From positions 41,045 through 105,044 of IMG/VR virus record IMGVR_UViG_3300020468_000003: a stretch of 64,000 nucleotides of DNA, one strand, 5' to 3'. Below, piece by piece: positions 14,515 through 37,709 of this stretch; position 1 is the first letter of the stretch, and each line of letters begins with the position of its first letter. Source of the stretch: a virus. The position numbers and the translations under genes were made by a program. The notes under the pieces were generated by a model. The model did not search any database, was not told where the DNA came from, and worked only from the letters and a program-made list of their open reading frames with translations.

Positions 14515-14955
14515 TTAAACTGTCCTAGTTGTCTTTGGGATTTCTACGGGTTTCGTGTAGAATCCTGTAATCTTCCATGTCTCGTCGTCATGTGTGATGT
14601 CTGTTTCATACGCATGCCATTTACCTTTCAAGAAGATGTAAAGGAATTCGGAACCGCAGTCAATTTGTGCCAGTTCATCAAGATTTTTTGATAGGACTGG
14701 TCCCTCATCTTTCCCACCATAATATTCAACGTGACCTTCGCAATCCTCGAACTCTTCGGTTTCCTTGTTATACTTGCTTGTAGAAAAGCACGAAGACATA
14801 TTGCCACCGTCGATGAGTTCGCGAACTGTCTCATCTGTGTTGTAGTGCTCTTCAAGAGTTACACCCAACCATTCAGGATATCCATCCCAGTGATGATAAA
14901 CAGAAAGAATGGAATCATCTTGTAATACATAACCAATTCGTGAACGTGTTGACAT
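14515..14955 (-). CDS. Conserved phage hypothetical protein
   Basis: MSTRSRIG...SVYHHWDGYPEWLG..L..HY family signature. Confidence 0.8.
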   Translation of the reverse strand: MSTRSRIGYVLQDDSILSVYHHWDGYPEWLGVTLEEHYNTDETVRELIDGGNMSSCFSTSKYNKETEEFEDCEGHVEYYGGKDEGPVLSKNLDELAQIDCGSEFLYIFLKGKWHAYETDITHDDETWKITGFYTKPVEIPKTTRTV

Positions 14956-14976
14956 AATGTTTTTAAAAAATGGATT

Positions 14977-15095
14977 GTAGAGGTACTTGCACCAGAGTAA
15001 TTAACTACTGGGGTCGATCTCGACATTTCAAGAGTGGGACTAAGATGCATCTGCCCTGTTAAGGTGTCTCCCGCTTCACTATCTCTGCCCTCTAC
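14977..15095 (-). ncRNA. Candidate structured 5' leader RNA (copy 1)
   Basis: Closing stem GTAGAGG/CCTCTAC begins at the predicted TSS; internal hairpins; shares motifs with 29972-30049. Confidence 0.5.
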
Positions 15096-15147
15096 TCTTA
15101 TATAATAAACGATTTTGAGTCGTTTTCAATAAAAAGTGGACACTTAT

Positions 15148-15390
15148 TTAACTGTCCACTCTTGATTTTTTGAAGTCGCATTTCATGTAGTCTTGGACTT
15201 CATCAATAACTTCACCGAAGTAATCACCCCAATAATCCTTCGCATCATTTAGAAATTCATCGTCAGTTTGACCATCAACATATTTGTCCATGTCGTTGTG
15301 AACATACTCAACTAAATCTTTAGTGTCCATGTTATCAACATATCTCTCAACAAAGAAAGATTTGAGCTCATTAATTAAGGCTTTGTCCAT
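15148..15390 (-). CDS. Acidic early protein, paralog family A (start MDKAL)
   Basis: LKSFFVERYVDNMDTKDLVEYV; GGAGG RBS. Confidence 0.75.
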   Translation of the reverse strand: MDKALINELKSFFVERYVDNMDTKDLVEYVHNDMDKYVDGQTDDEFLNDAKDYWGDYFGEVIDEVQDYMKCDFKKSRVDS

Positions 15391-26434: not shown

Positions 26435-26831
26435 AAAATGCCTCTAATCCAACTGGTTCTCCAAAACTATAATCATAAGTTAATGCATCATGACAAACAT
26501 AATGCGGATGATCAGGTTTTACACCTAATCTTTTACACAATTCAAGATGATTATCCTCCATGAGTTCTACTGCATACAACATATTGTTTAGTATGTGTTC
26601 CTCATCATGATACTGCAGCAATTTAGTTTTAAGAGTAACTAAAAAGTTACCACTACCTGCTGAATTATCTAGGAAAGTAGAATTAGGGTTCTTTTTTACA
26701 TCATCTGGTATATCATTTATCATTCTAGCACAAACATCCATAGGTGTAAACACTTCGCTAGTAGCATTTATCCTATCATCTGATCTTTCAATTACAGATC
26801 CTACACTCTTATTGTGGTCGTTTCTTTTCAT
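26427..26831 (-). CDS. Stand-alone SAM-binding half of an N6-adenine DNA methyltransferase (motifs X, I, II, III only)
   Basis: EVFTP, FLDNSAGSGNFL, LYAVELMEDN, VCHDAL; ends before any NPPY. Confidence 0.85.
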   Translation of the reverse strand: MKRNDHNKSVGSVIERSDDRINATSEVFTPMDVCARMINDIPDDVKKNPNSTFLDNSAGSGNFLVTLKTKLLQYHDEEHILNNMLYAVELMEDNHLELCKRLGVKPDHPHYVCHDALTYDYSFGEPVGLEAFYE

Positions 26832-29800
26832 AAAATATCAGGAATAGTTCTGAATAATTCTTTTGAATTAGTATTAACTATCCTATTCTTTAGAACCATT
26901 TGATGTACTTCATCAGATCTTAAATAATCTGCAAGTTTATTACTCTCCTCCTCAGAAGATGTTTTTATGATAACTGTAGATCCACTAATAGAATGATCGT
27001 AAGGTTTGATACGGATCTGTCCAAAACCTTGTCCACCGTATTTACTATTCATTACAACTCCATGTTGATTAATACAACAAGTATGCTGAGACTTATCAAC
27101 ATTAGTAACTTGCATCTCTCCATTTTTACCACCCATTGTAGTTATCATAGGATACTCTCCCTCAATCAATTGATTTAAGTTCAAATCTCCACGTTGATAG
27201 CGATGTCCCATATTGTTAGAAACATCTGAAACAAAATCTGGATTAGTAAATCTAATACAAGTATCATCAGTAAGTTGAATATTCTTTACTGTACCATCAA
27301 GATAAGTTAATTTTGTTAGTCCAGTGTATCCACGTTTCCATGTACAAATACATGTCTCTGTCATTGATATAGATGGAAATGTATCAGGAGATAATGCTTC
27401 AATAGAAACAATACCTGGTGTTGAAAACAAAGTTCTTCTAAACTTTGATGTGGATTTAGCAAAGTGTTTTGATCGAATTACTTCTGATACATAATCAGAT
27501 CTTTTCATTGCACTTAGATAAAAATGTGTATCTAAAGTTTTTGCACATCCACCTGTGGTTGCACCTGTTACTGTAGATGTATCTGTATATGGTGGATTAC
27601 CAACTGTAGCACTAAACTGCATTTTGTAATTACTAAGGTTGTCGGTTACATTAATTTTAGCATTAATCTGCTTTATTGCATAGCGATGAGTAGGATCGTT
27701 TTCCCACACCACTATGTCATCGGGTTCCCAAGATTTATTCTCTATTGCATATAAAGAATGAAGTCCAGAGGGATCTCCATGTATATACAACTTTTCAGTT
27801 GTATCCTTTTTTAAAGGAATCATCCTATCAAGAATATCTAATGAAAGTGTCTTTTGATTCTTTCTTGTTGTTGCAAGTTTCTGTAAGGTTCCACATTCAT
27901 CTTTAGACATAGAATGTTCAATATCTATGATTCCTTGATTAATTCTATTGATCCAAGATTTAGGTATAATCTTTTGTTCTAAACAAGCTTTGATAATACC
28001 AGTAGTGTCTCCTGTGTCATGTTCATAATATTTTGAACTAAGAATACTATCTACACTTTTAGGTGTGGATTTATTCTTTATCATATGGAAGATAACTAAT
28101 CCTATTCTCTCCATGTATGCTTGAATAGTTTCTGTTTTCTGTGCTATCTCAGACTTATCAAAATGTGTAGAAAATTTAGATGAACTGGTAAGTTTCTTAT
28201 TACTGTTTGCGTTAGCATTGTTTTCATTTACTGTAAAAGAACTCCATGAAGATAACTTTGCACTCTTCTGAAAATTATCAAATTCAATGTCTCCTAACTT
28301 AAGAAAATCTAATTGAGATACAATACCTGATATCAAAGATACTGCACTGTCTACATCATTAGATAGAATTTCGTTTAGACGTTCTGGTGTTACTTCTTCA
28401 AAATCAGAGAAGTATTCAAAGATAGGAACTAAATCAAGAAGTTCATATTCAGATTCTGTTAACTCATGATTCAAATCACATGCAGTAAAATACATGTTTC
28501 TGATTGTAGTAAAACAACGTTCTGGGCAAAAATCAATTACATCCCAAAAGTTTCTCTTTGTTGATCCACCACGGAAAGCAAACTGTGTCCATTGTTCTCT
28601 TGATGATCCTTCTGCACAATTCATAACAGTATCAATACCCTCTGCAGTTAGACCAAGAACATTTGCAGTTTTAGTTAAGATAACTGTAGATGTGTTAGTA
28701 TCAATATGTGATCTGATTGTCTCAGAATTTTCTCTAGTATCTGAAGTTACAACTAATGGTTTAAATCTTGTTGATTTAAAATAATCTACAAGTGCATGAC
28801 ATGATGCCATAGAAGGCAAAGTTATCATTACATGTCTACAGTTCTTTAGTATTCTTTTGTTATACTTTATTCCATCTTGAGTAAACACTTTACTCATAAA
28901 TTCATCAACTAATATTGGTTCAGCAAAATCATCCTCATCTTTGTTTACTCTAAAAATATTACCCATTGCATCAGGATCATCGCCATATAAGTCTTGATAT
29001 TTACTGGACTCATACTTTGCAAGAATCAATCTCATCTGTGGAGAATTTACATACTCCTTTATACCTTGCAATTTATACAATTGCTCCTCAAAATATGAAT
29101 ATACAAATCTAAATTTAGGAAAATCTTCTAAGATTTTATGTGCAGTTCCTGAGACATACAATACTTTTGTATCGAAGTGATCTCTAAGACTTATCCATTG
29201 ATCTCCCTCATATCCAAGATGTGCTTCATCGAATACTATTAGATCAATATTACAAGGTAGATTCTTATATCTGTTAGGAGCTTGAATAGTAGAATATAGA
29301 ACTATTTGTTTTTCAGTTCCCATCCAATACTCTATCTCATTCTTAAACTGATCTACTTCACCATCACGAATATCAATGAATATAATATTATCAAAGTTTT
29401 TAAACTGTTGGGAATCATCTCTCCATGATTGTTTAGGAGAATTTCTATATGAAACAACTAAGGATACCTTAACATTACTCTCTACAATAGAGGAAAGAAC
29501 CATTGTAGATTTACCTGCACGACACTTAGCAAATAACAAATACTCTTTCCATTCATCCCATGTTGAAGTTATCTCAGATACAAATTCTTTTTGGTGTTTG
29601 CGAAGTTTACGATATTCTTTTTCCTCTACATTATTTGTAAAAAACTCTTCTTCAATAAGATCCTTTACAACATCAATACTTAAACCATGACCATCTTCAA
29701 TTTTATAAGTCTCTCTACCAGTTTGTGTAATACCACGTTGTTTTTTTAACCAACTATGTATCTCATGATCTCTACCATCAAAATCTGTCCACCATCCTCT

Positions 29801-29947
29801 CTTTATTCTTGCACTACCAACTGCTGCTAAATCTTGTTTTGACTTACCATAGTCTCCACCTTTATGTCTATCTTCATATGTGTGTATGGTTTCTCCTAAA
29901 CCGAAGGCAGACGGATTACCTTTAAACCCGTCAAGGTAAATGTTCAT
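26828..29947 (-). CDS. Multidomain GIY-YIG/T5orf172-like + SF2 helicase + N6-MTase catalytic/TRD protein
   Basis: AKCRAGKST (Walker A), FDEAH, SGTA, QFAFRGG; VGNPPY; N-terminal IY...GET..T.E.R...DHEIH..LK...GRE pattern. Confidence 0.8.
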   Translation of the reverse strand: MNIYLDGFKGNPSAFGLGETIHTYEDRHKGGDYGKSKQDLAAVGSARIKRGWWTDFDGRDHEIHSWLKKQRGITQTGRETYKIEDGHGLSIDVVKDLIEEEFFTNNVEEKEYRKLRKHQKEFVSEITSTWDEWKEYLLFAKCRAGKSTMVLSSIVESNVKVSLVVSYRNSPKQSWRDDSQQFKNFDNIIFIDIRDGEVDQFKNEIEYWMGTEKQIVLYSTIQAPNRYKNLPCNIDLIVFDEAHLGYEGDQWISLRDHFDTKVLYVSGTAHKILEDFPKFRFVYSYFEEQLYKLQGIKEYVNSPQMRLILAKYESSKYQDLYGDDPDAMGNIFRVNKDEDDFAEPILVDEFMSKVFTQDGIKYNKRILKNCRHVMITLPSMASCHALVDYFKSTRFKPLVVTSDTRENSETIRSHIDTNTSTVILTKTANVLGLTAEGIDTVMNCAEGSSREQWTQFAFRGGSTKRNFWDVIDFCPERCFTTIRNMYFTACDLNHELTESEYELLDLVPIFEYFSDFEEVTPERLNEILSNDVDSAVSLISGIVSQLDFLKLGDIEFDNFQKSAKLSSWSSFTVNENNANANSNKKLTSSSKFSTHFDKSEIAQKTETIQAYMERIGLVIFHMIKNKSTPKSVDSILSSKYYEHDTGDTTGIIKACLEQKIIPKSWINRINQGIIDIEHSMSKDECGTLQKLATTRKNQKTLSLDILDRMIPLKKDTTEKLYIHGDPSGLHSLYAIENKSWEPDDIVVWENDPTHRYAIKQINAKINVTDNLSNYKMQFSATVGNPPYTDTSTVTGATTGGCAKTLDTHFYLSAMKRSDYVSEVIRSKHFAKSTSKFRRTLFSTPGIVSIEALSPDTFPSISMTETCICTWKRGYTGLTKLTYLDGTVKNIQLTDDTCIRFTNPDFVSDVSNNMGHRYQRGDLNLNQLIEGEYPMITTMGGKNGEMQVTNVDKSQHTCCINQHGVVMNSKYGGQGFGQIRIKPYDHSISGSTVIIKTSSEEESNKLADYLRSDEVHQMVLKNRIVNTNSKELFRTIPDIL

Positions 29948-29971
29948 TTTCTCCGAATAAATTGGGTGCGA

Positions 29972-30049
29972 GAAACAAAAACTCGGACTTACAGGACGTA
30001 ATTTCTCTGCTGAACAAAGACAACCATAGATCCTTGCCTGTTTTGTTTC
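29972..30049 (-). ncRNA. Candidate structured 5' leader RNA (copy 2)
   Basis: Closing stem GAAACAAAA/TTTTGTTTC begins just after the predicted TSS; shares motifs with 14977-15095. Confidence 0.5.
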
Positions 30050-30058
30050 CCTGTATTA

Positions 30059-30113
30059 ATTATAGCATGAAAAAACCCCCTGTAAAGGGGGTTGTGACAG
30101 TTTCTAAACTGTT
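30059..30113 (-). promoter_or_regulatory. Early-promoter module driving the nuclease-helicase-MTase operon
   Basis: ATTATA-N28-TGTGACAGTTTCTAAACTGT with CCCCC/GGGGG terminator hairpin. Confidence 0.85.
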
Positions 30114-36662: not shown

Positions 36663-37709
36663 TCTTTTCTGTATTAGTTTACCATACTCTTCATTAAGTT
36701 CGCAACCTATGTAATCTCTACCTAATTGTTTTGCTACCATTCCAGTAGTACCTGATCCCATGAAAGGATCTAAAATTATATCTCCCTTTTCGCTCCCTGC
36801 TTTAATACATGGTTCAATTAATGCAGGTGGAAATACAGCAAAGTGTGCACCTTTATATGGTTTATTTGTTACTGACCAGACAGATCGTTTATTTTTTGTT
36901 GGATATGATTTTGTAAGTCCGCTATGTGGTTGGAGTCCTGTTCCTGTGTTATGGTATTTTCCGTTTGTTCTGTCTCTTGTTCCCCAATCTTTTGCGGGTT
37001 CTTTGATTGCTTCATTATCGTAGTGGTATTTTCTATTTTTACTAAACAAAAATATATATTCGTGTGCTTTAGTACACCTATCCCTTACACTTTCTGGCAT
37101 AGGATTAGGTTTATGCCAAATGATATCTTGTCTTAGATACCATCCATCTGCTCTCATTGCGAAGGCAAAGAGCCATGGGATTCCGATGAGGTCTTTTTCT
37201 TTAAGTCCATCGATTCTATTTCCTCTACGAGGACACACATCTGGTAAGTCTTGTTTTGAATTTGCAACAGTTTGTTTTGGAAGTCCTTGTCCTTTTCCAG
37301 GTCTGTAGTTATAGTAACTATCCCCAAGATTAACCCAACAAGTTCCATCATCTGTAAGCACATTGCGAACCTCCTTAAATACGTTTACTAATTGATCAAC
37401 ATATTCTTCTGGAGTCTCCTCCAATCCGATTTGATCATCTTGTCTTACTGCACCACATTTTGGACACACACTTTTGTATATGTAATCTCCAACACCACCC
37501 ATGATGTCAGCATTTTTATGACCAGTAATACAATTTGAACCTTGCTTACCTTTTTTTCTATGATCACAATTAGGATCTCCTCCTATCCAAGTAGCAGTTC
37601 CATAATCCCTGAGACCATAGTATGGTGGAGATGTTACACACATCCTTGCCTGTTCGTCAAATTGTTTGAGTGTCTCCCGACAATCTCCAAATAAAATTGT
37701 GTCTCTCAT
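36621..37709 (-). CDS. Beta-class amino-DNA methyltransferase (likely N4-cytosine)
   Basis: N-terminal TSPPY, IIWHKPNPMP, HFAVFP, C-terminal LDPFMGSGTT. Confidence 0.95.
   Translation of the reverse strand: MRDTILFGDCRETLKQFDEQARMCVTSPPYYGLRDYGTATWIGGDPNCDHRKKGKQGSNCITGHKNADIMGGVGDYIYKSVCPKCGAVRQDDQIGLEETPEEYVDQLVNVFKEVRNVLTDDGTCWVNLGDSYYNYRPGKGQGLPKQTVANSKQDLPDVCPRRGNRIDGLKEKDLIGIPWLFAFAMRADGWYLRQDIIWHKPNPMPESVRDRCTKAHEYIFLFSKNRKYHYDNEAIKEPAKDWGTRDRTNGKYHNTGTGLQPHSGLTKSYPTKNKRSVWSVTNKPYKGAHFAVFPPALIEPCIKAGSEKGDIILDPFMGSGTTGMVAKQLGRDYIGCELNEEYGKLIQKRVTDYKVSIMDIID

Follow-up and report, generated by a model that had tools for sequence, protein, structure and literature searches.

A predicted clamp-and-cargo leader RNA before the T4-GC66 gene of T4-like cyanophages, and its separation from the M1 rod family

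What does a folded RNA do at the start of an early phage message, and do two leaders that carry the same short strings belong to one family? T4-like cyanophages kill a large share of the Prochlorococcus and Synechococcus in the ocean, and to our knowledge almost nothing is known about early-gene control in them. Both questions are raised by a 64,000-nucleotide stretch of DNA (the window) from a roughly half-complete (49%) 105-kb contig of an uncultured T4-like cyanophage. A preliminary description had proposed that a leader at 15095..14977 (copy 1) and another at 29972-30049 (copy 2) represent one RNA family, placed in front of unrelated genes. New in the present analysis are the separation of copy 1 from M1, the family to which copy 2 belongs, the fold and the cargo swap of copy 1, the covariation statistics of M1, and the rules for the clamp and the bulged closure. 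Copy 1 is, as modelled by folding of its variants, a real and strongly conserved folded leader that starts a predicted early message.

The copy-1 leader RNA is 119 nt long and lies on the minus strand (15095..14977), as do the genes of the region, and all strings quoted for it in the preliminary description were found there (Table 1). The sigma-70-like promoter, TTGAAA-16-TATTAT, puts the predicted +1 at about 15095, so that the closing helix would begin with the first transcribed base, about 7 nt past the promoter end (15102), in agreement with the transcript start proposed earlier. The leader was also confirmed to be more GC-rich than its flanks (0.48 vs 0.32-0.39). A small DUF7326 gene ends upstream of the copy-1 terminator and promoter, and the terminator palindrome (15159..15131) is 94-100% identical to those of relatives. 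Analysis of the spacer before the AUG by sequence and folding indicated neither a U-tract terminator nor pairing with the start region. The protein encoded downstream (GC66) gave no Pfam hit and no relative of solved structure, and a protein atlas returned hypothetical viral proteins only. A scan for tRNA and tmRNA found none. The same palindrome, CAGTT..A..A.GTGTC, is present at seven sites on the minus strand between 11813 and 16395 of the window, where it sits at the ends of successive small early genes, before a terminator and a promoter, in the manner of a PeSL-like joint between cassettes; its conservation (94-100%) equals that of the leader, unlike that of the genes.

Table 1. Window coordinates of the features at the two leaders and their surroundings.
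Feature	Position	Strand	Basis or remark
PeSL-like terminator: palindrome/hairpin GUGGACA..UGUCCAC followed by U-run, closing the upstream cassette	15131..15159	-	Read from sequence
Early promoter TTGAAA-16 nt-TATTAT, sigma-70-like	15102..15129	-	Consensus scan, 10/12 matches; prediction
Copy-1 leader: clamp around three arms (three-arm junction)	14977..15095	-	Predicted fold and frame conservation
Clamp 5' arm GUAGAGG, from predicted +1	15089..15095	-	Pair probability 0.96-1.0, six variants folded
Arm A, cargo-bearing stem AAG(C/A)GGG / CCC-A-CUCUU	15030..15076	-	Folding of variants
Variable cargo, RNA positions 31-52	15044..15065	-	blastn-short against relatives aligns only positions 1-30 and 52-119
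Arm B, hairpin GUCG-AGAU-CGAC	15013..15024	-	Probability 0.37 here, 0.75-0.81 in A23 relatives
Arm C, hairpin CCAG-U-AGU / loop UAAUU / ACU-CUGG, including AAUUAC	14992..15011	-	Probability 0.93-0.99, all variants
AAGUA, predicted 3'-strand bulge between clamp and weak GCA/UGC extension	14984..14988	-	MFE, all variants
Clamp 3' arm CCUCUAC	14977..14983	-	Folding of variants
A/U-rich unstructured spacer from clamp to start codon	14956..14976	-	21 nt; not sequestered
Downstream gene, ATG at 14955, 146-aa protein	14515..14955	-	phrog_1987; 'T4-GC 66' in P-SSM2 and P-HM2
Copy-2 -10 box TATAAT	30064..30059	-	Upstream of clamp
Copy-2 clamp GGGAAACAAAAC ... GAGUUUUUGUUUCUC, TSS-anchored, enclosing M1	29970..30051	-	Sequence and folding
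Copy 2, M1 module, 54-nt three-helix rod	29985..30038	-	R1 score 86.4 bits; covariation, 91 distinct versions

Folding of six copy-1 variants predicted one common architecture, in which a clamp encloses arms A, B, and C. The closing GUAGAGG/CCUCUAC pairing of the preliminary description was thereby upheld; the interior that it had drawn was largely not. The CAGAG/CUCUG and UUAAC/GUUAA pairings have ensemble probabilities of 0.01 or less, the partner of UUAAC lies in a segment that is wholly replaced in relatives, and the energy of the whole earlier structure is -12.5 kcal/mol vs -27.9 kcal/mol for the MFE. As for AGAUGCAUCU and GUCGAGAUCGAC, the paired strings are present, but their hairpins have just 3-4 bp and a probability of 0.3-0.4 in this copy. 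The GCA/UGC extension beyond the clamp reaches a probability of only 0.2-0.3. The stem of arm A has a probability of 0.83-0.99 in variants with A at RNA position 23 (A23). The copy of the window and that of one relative have C there (C23), which weakens arm A, and the ensembles of these two variants are diffuse. The folding energy of copy 1 is no better than that of shuffled sequences (z = -0.06), and we ascribe this poor score to the weakening of arm A by C23. The frame is invariant and the arms show no compensatory covariation; an A/G polymorphism at RNA position 98 in arm C (RCU in the 3' strand) retains its pair by a change of U-A to U-G. The predicted fold fits the borders of the cargo, which are those of a predicted arm, the retained pair in arm C, and the effect of C23.

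Nine viral or metagenome contigs carry the copy-1 leader, always before a GC66 gene, and the leader type was found in ten records, each time upstream of a T4-GC66 gene and nowhere else; the known relatives are uncultured contigs only. Among them, the frame is 97-100% identical, with RNA positions 1-30 and 52-119 nearly unchanged and the middle replaced by three unrelated inserts, so that there are four cargo versions including that of the window and leaders of 119 to 166 nt. All four unrelated cargos are placed exactly at the tip of predicted arm A. In contig L347, the flanking genes are 67-78% identical to those of the window, and the promoter, frame, and spacer are 94-97% identical; the leaders are more conserved than the genes behind them. 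Part of the high identity among copy-1 leaders could come from recent recombination. A blastn search of copy 1 against 50,697 phage records gave chance hits only, a search of viral contigs for a copy-1 21-mer found none, and one for a 16-mer found 2 true relatives, the other matches being chance hits in coding DNA.

Copy 2 differs in both sequence and context. When the 30-kb region was searched by blastn, the matches were limited to a 55-nt core (identity, 87-98%). P-SSM2, P-SSM5, and single-virus genomes carry it in unannotated DNA between genes, and its flanks there are unrelated. This core is the M1 module, the parts of which follow the order P1 (GG/CC), CA opposite N-UAAGU, P2 (AGGAU/GUCCU), an internal loop of CUAUGGUUG / AAAUUAC, and the P3 hairpin, with a 39-nt extension or insert in the P3 hairpin of some members. 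Pattern scans located >150 occurrences in marine viral contigs, from which 91 distinct versions were taken with their flanks, and none was found in 185,579 cellular species genomes. A covariance model constructed from 51 M1 sequences (R1) gave every other true M1 member at least 68 bits. Applied to the window and the 105-kb contig, R1 identified copy 2 as the single M1, along with weak hits at 37156 and 24702, the former being apparently in coding sequence, as judged from its sequence.

Among the 91 versions, P2 is 99.8% paired, and in three of its pairs both bases differ between versions (A-U in 70 and G-C in 20, for example); P3, which is 98.9% paired, also has three such pairs; and the inner pairs of P1 alternate among A-U, G-C, G-U, and U-A. 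This covariation was matched by 0 of 500 shuffles and lost on sliding the partners, and about 22 bases in the loops are nearly invariant. M1 is sense-oriented relative to the flanking ORFs. P2 holds an invariant U-G pair and further G-U pairs are present elsewhere, which indicates that it is the M1 RNA of this strand that is under selection. At the level of sequence comparison, the compensatory changes and the strand-specific G-U pairs together prove selection on the predicted RNA structure. Covariation, proposed at the outset as a check of the family, was thus detected for all three helices of M1 and not in the invariant frame of copy 1.

M1 and its sister modules occur in leaders and between genes, often in tandem, with the next ORF at a median distance of 84 nt. 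In 17 of 116 contexts M1 lies inside a TSS-anchored clamp, as it does in this window, and in at least 31 of 116 it follows other modules; it can also immediately follow a stop codon, and about 5 of 116 contexts have it just before a terminator. Some contigs have multiple copies. The genes downstream of M1 are unrelated to each other, GC66 being frequent among them. The earlier claim of placement before unrelated genes therefore applies to the M1 family of copy 2 but not to copy 1, which precedes GC66 alone. The gene behind copy 2 (26828-29947 of the window, minus strand) encodes a 1039-aa protein in which ResIII helicase and Eco57I-type methylase domains are fused, and M1-in-clamp leaders like that of copy 2 precede quite different genes in relatives. 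The M1 core also contains a 12-codon mini-ORF (29989-30027 of the window, minus strand), which starts at the AUG of the CUAUGG loop and stops at the UAA of the UAAGU bulge; an SD-like AAGGA precedes it by 3 nt, and the variable base 47 (G/U/C) falls at a synonymous Leu position. A conserved peptide was rejected, since compensatory changes in the stems alter the encoded amino acids and an in-frame UGA stop comes with the 39-nt insert.

The proposal that copy 1 and copy 2 form one family, with a homologous core of GGCA.RGAU ... AAUUAC ... GYAAGU.CC and a variable insert, could then be examined with these data. The three short strings are indeed present in the same order, adjoining the closing helix, in both leaders, and an AAGU-containing bulge lies beside the clamp in both, the AAGUA bulge being the feature of copy 1 closest to the UAAGU bulge of copy 2. 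Furthermore, a bulged closure, GGC(R)..(Y)G-UAAG(U/A)-CC, is common to at least 10 unrelated interiors (61 distinct hits by descriptor vs 5 in reversed sequence), and the best R1 sub-hit in copy 1 is a closure of this kind. Local alignment of the two M1 halves to copy 1 is, however, at chance level, with 15-19% of all windows scoring as high, and blastn-short of copy 1 detected no M1 similarity. With its filters off, R1 left copy 1 unreported at E<=10, whereas copy 2 scored 86 bits, and on the copy-1 region alone it aligned just the nested GGGCA..UUAGUCCC closure (7.4 bits). The three covarying rod helices that characterise M1 are present in copy 2 and lacking in copy 1, in which the putative P2 (CAGAG/CUCUG) is shifted by one register and, as stated above, hardly populated. 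The invariant CUAUGGUUG loop is also missing from copy 1, so that, against the CUAUGGUUG / AAAUUAC loops and the UAAGU bulge of M1, copy 1 has AUAGUGAAG, an AAUUAC located in a hairpin, and AAGUA. AAUUAC is a junction strand in copy 2 and part of the hairpin loop and stem of arm C in copy 1. From the R1 miss, the chance-level alignment, the absence of a blastn-short match, and the different places of AAUUAC, we conclude that the cores are not homologous and that the leaders are two different folded designs on one plan. A single family is accordingly an unlikely reading, and a conserved core with a variable insert describes each leader separately but not a core common to both. The common plan is, on the predicted folds, a TSS-anchored helix, an adjoining AAGU-containing 5-nt bulge in the 3' strand, and swappable cargo. 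Leaders with common short strings are thus not necessarily one family; the common feature here is architecture.

This plan extends to other loci. Of 67 distinct related loci with a GGGAAAC clamp, 65 have a -10 box 6-8 nt ahead of it, and the enclosed inserts measure 12-159 nt. We define a clamp-and-cargo leader by a 5' arm 6-8 nt after the -10 box, a 3' arm ending 15-30 nt before the start codon, and a variable insert. In copy 1, a -10 box with its end at 15102 precedes the arm, which runs from 15095, 21 nt separate the clamp from the AUG, and there are four cargos; copy 2 follows the same rule with a different clamp and with the M1 rod as cargo. The closure of copy 1 is a near-miss of the bulged-closure consensus, and M1c, a further bulged-closure module, is located directly after the promoter in six contigs.

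Based on this architecture, our preferred reading, which we hold with a little less than even confidence, is that copy 1 is a 5'-end-protecting leader of an early T4-like cyanophage mRNA before GC66 and carries autonomous RNA modules. The 7-bp helix would pair the predicted 5' terminus of the transcript with a segment that lies 21 nt ahead of the start codon. A clamp at +1 would bury the 5' end in a duplex and so keep RNase E and RNase J from degrading the message in a 5'-end-dependent manner. The clamp would also let the cargo fold independently, with the translation start left accessible, and some factor would read the cargo modules and the AAGU-bulged closure as autonomous RNA domains. 5'-terminal stem-loops are known to stabilise bacterial and phage mRNAs, such as those of E. 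coli ompA, T4 gene 32, and the B. subtilis ermC and aprE leaders. They resemble copy 1 in having a helix at or within a few bases of +1, a free ribosome-binding region, and, for phage, an early-mRNA context, but they are simple hairpins, whereas the long-range clamp predicted here encloses 100-160 nt of conserved, modular, and exchangeable RNA.

In favour of 5'-end protection by copy 1, the promoter puts the predicted +1 at the first base of the clamp, the clamp probability is about 1.0 in the six variants, and, in L347, the frame and promoter exceed the flanking genes in identity (94-97% vs 67-78%). The location of the cargos exactly at the tip of arm A, the tolerated U-A to U-G change in arm C, the unpaired AUG spacer, the proximity of 65 of 67 GGGAAAC clamps to a -10 box, and the sense orientation and G-U pairs of M1 point in the same direction. 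Against it stand the invariance of the copy-1 frame without compensatory covariation, a folding energy equal to that of shuffles, the C23 of the window copy, and the occurrence of M1 away from 5' ends, including the contexts just before a terminator. In addition, a stabiliser needs just a hairpin, which leaves the approximately 100 nt of conserved frame and the M1 loops unexplained. Since protection does not account for loops conserved to the letter, M1, the copy-1 frame, and the bulged closure are probably also recognition sites, for a protein or a nuclease, or form a tertiary fold.

A role in RNA processing is rather unlikely. The modules might mark cuts in early polycistronic RNA or stall a 5'-3' exonuclease such as RNase J, the stable structure then capping the downstream message. 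The distribution of M1 and its sister modules, sense-oriented, often in tandem, and a median of 84 nt before an ORF in leaders and between genes, would suit this role, as would the letter-for-letter conservation of the loops, which suggests a specific tertiary fold or recognition site. Copy 1, however, already begins at its predicted promoter and needs no processing for its 5' end. The early-gene sites of T7 (R0.3, R0.5, R1.1, and others), which are double-stranded hairpins of about 20 bp cut by host RNase III, likewise recur between the genes of early transcripts as related, irregular hairpins whose internal loops or bulges are conserved, but the modules here have helices of 5-7 bp, short for RNase III, with sequence-invariant loops. 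We know of no Xrn1 in the host of a cyanophage. In plant RNA viruses, coremin (xrRNA-C) consists of hp1, which has 3-5 bp and a YGAD tetraloop, a 10-nt spacer GUUAAACUAC, and hp2 (PMC6546385). It is similar to M1 in that a hairpin is followed by a conserved A-rich spacer (AAAUUAC here vs AAACUAC) ahead of protected RNA, but the YGAD hp1, the GUUAAACUAC spacer, and hp2, its defining features (PMC6546385), are all missing here, and the M1 strand pairs back upstream into a rod. Both leaders were accordingly rejected as coremin, M1 having a 6-bp hairpin with a UUCAG loop, the AAAUUAC spacer, and no hp2, and copy 1 having GUCG-AGAU-CGAC followed by a 16-nt CCCAGUAGUUAAUUAC spacer.

Alternatively, the modules may serve as an operator for an RNA-binding protein, which could be a RegA-type translational repressor, GC66 itself, or a host factor that the modules titrate. 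The conservation of unpaired bases, namely the 22 nearly invariant nucleotides of M1 and the whole copy-1 frame, the restriction of the copy-1 frame to sites upstream of GC66, and the multiple copies of M1 in some contigs would be expected of an operator; but GC66 has no recognisable RNA-binding domain, and we judge this reading unlikely. A search for RegA (PF01818) gave no hit in the 49%-complete contig, and the control genomes were equally without a hit. The put RNAs of HK022 (putL and putR), two-stem-loop antiterminators that bind RNA polymerase in cis, resemble the two leaders in that they are two structured RNAs of different sequences just downstream of phage early promoters; unlike these polymerase-binding antiterminators, M1 is also found far from promoters. 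A broader reading, to which we assign a low probability, is that the clamp, the AAGU-bulged closure, and the nestable cargo modules (M1, the copy-1 frame, and at least 10 others) constitute a phage-specific RNA toolkit that is read by a dedicated factor, or that M1 is catalytic. If so, they would be a new class of element for RNA-level control, processing, or host takeover, confined to marine cyanomyoviruses.

An effect at the DNA level is very unlikely. On this reading, the block of promoter and leader would act as an extended PeSL, a recombination joint for cassette shuffling that has no RNA function of its own. For PeSLs, the promoter-early/stem-loop cassettes found in T4-like phages, the literature describes promoter/terminator joints at the DNA level (Arbiol 2010; Comeau 2014, PMC4122927), and cyanophages go unmentioned in the 2014 paper (PMC4122927). 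The concept fits the palindrome/terminator and early promoter just upstream of copy 1, as well as the mosaic conservation and the exchange of cassettes, but it does not include a leader RNA past +1 or covarying helices. A conserved stem-loop/terminator directly followed by an early promoter between small early genes, as in a PeSL cassette joint, is present at 15159..15102 and does not include the leader. The leader is nevertheless contiguous with this block and equally conserved (94-100%), the cargo swaps and mosaic contexts point to frequent recombination, and PeSLs are documented in T4-like phages (PMC4122927). On the other side are the compensatory changes and strand-specific G-U pairs of M1 and the coincidence of the copy-1 cargo borders with a predicted RNA arm; recombination accounts for spread, not for invariant loops beside changing stems.

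The probability of a riboswitch, a bistable switch, or a self-cleaving ribozyme is slighter still. In size and in its pattern of conservation, with covarying helices and invariant loops, M1 resembles small aptamers and ribozymes, and it holds the 12-codon mini-ORF described above. An alternative M1 fold with two hairpins or a kissing interaction (GGCAA/UUGUC, UUAC/GUAA), in which nearly every conserved loop base can pair, would expose the SD-like AAGGA and the AUG; it is 97.9% pairable but was rejected because it has zero covariation and is broken where columns 9, 94, and 96 vary. None of these M1 features is present in copy 1 itself. The preliminary description had listed a riboswitch among the candidate functions, but an expression platform together with one metabolic gene set was found for neither leader, and the genes downstream are unrelated and of unassigned function. 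The absence of an expression platform, of a terminator, and of sequestration of the ribosome-binding site in both leaders, together with the unpaired AUG spacer, argues against a classical riboswitch, and no known class of ribozyme or riboswitch in Rfam was hit even at E<=10. The weakest reading, coding of a 63-aa protein by the ATG-initiated ORF at 15050..14859 (minus strand), has next to no chance and was rejected, since the cargo that holds its start codon is exchanged in relatives, about 100 nt of the ORF overlap GC66 in another frame, and it has no PHROG match.

As to novelty, the earlier view that these are structured leader RNAs outside Rfam was confirmed, as cmscan matched no family for either. 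With Rfam 15 at the gathering thresholds, there were 0 hits to any family (including manA, wcaG, glnA, PhotoRC, the hairpin, hammerhead, twister, pistol, and hatchet ribozymes, and riboswitches) in the whole window and 14 related loci, and at E<=10 there were chance hits only, to terminators or flanks; M1 had no match even at E<=10. The noncoding RNAs listed for cyanophages in the literature are CfrI, PhotoRC-II, wcaG, manA, and glnA, and a literature search that included literal motif strings found no description of the present motifs. The closest in setting are manA (RF01745) and wcaG (RF01761), orphan motifs of structured RNA that comparative analysis revealed in T4-like cyanophages (Weinberg et al. 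2010, PMC2864571). They are likewise conserved structured intergenic RNAs of marine cyanomyoviruses, but they show no sequence or structure match by cmscan, and the modules here are small, nested, shuffled, and located at transcript starts. Neither leader is thus in Rfam or in the literature searched, and the PeSL papers cover the promoter/terminator joint, not the leader RNA. The occurrence of M1 in viral DNA alone, in about 100 distinct versions with covarying helices and invariant loops, together with the stronger conservation of the leaders than of the genes behind them, points to an undescribed RNA-based control or protection of early messages. Being small (54-120 nt) and self-contained, the leader parts might also serve as portable stabiliser or insulator parts.

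Several further elements were observed in the related contigs. A bulged-closure module of about 80 nt, GGCAGGAUCUAUCGU ... ACGUAAGACC, is located right after a TATATT promoter in L316, L320, L323, L326, L336, and L337. Upstream of the GC66 genes of L117, L135, L136, L147, L155, and L165 is a second promoter-like word, ..GGGGAC.TTAAAGTGT-N5-6-TAGTGT.., which directly precedes a leader type starting with GAGAAACAG and may represent a different, possibly middle, class of promoter. Module 'Z' (GAGGAGAUGGAUGUGCCUCUCGGUUCGCAACCGAAGAAAGAACUAACAUCC) is often found between M1 and the start of GC66 (for example, L001:1560-1615, L005, and L138-L142); with its SD and AUG, it could specify a leader peptide of some 22 aa, and its inner stem covaries (CGGUU/AACCG vs GGGAU/ACCC). 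Module 'X' (GAGGUUCCUAACUAC-CUCUG-..-AGAAG-CAGAG-ACAUGAC-GUUAGG-GUAA..) is present at L001:1345-1495 and in many of L086-L165. Its 3' half is as in M1, with CAGAGA.AU.AC, the 3' strand of P2, and GUAA, and variable inserts are placed in the same hairpin; module 'X' is probably a paralogue of M1.
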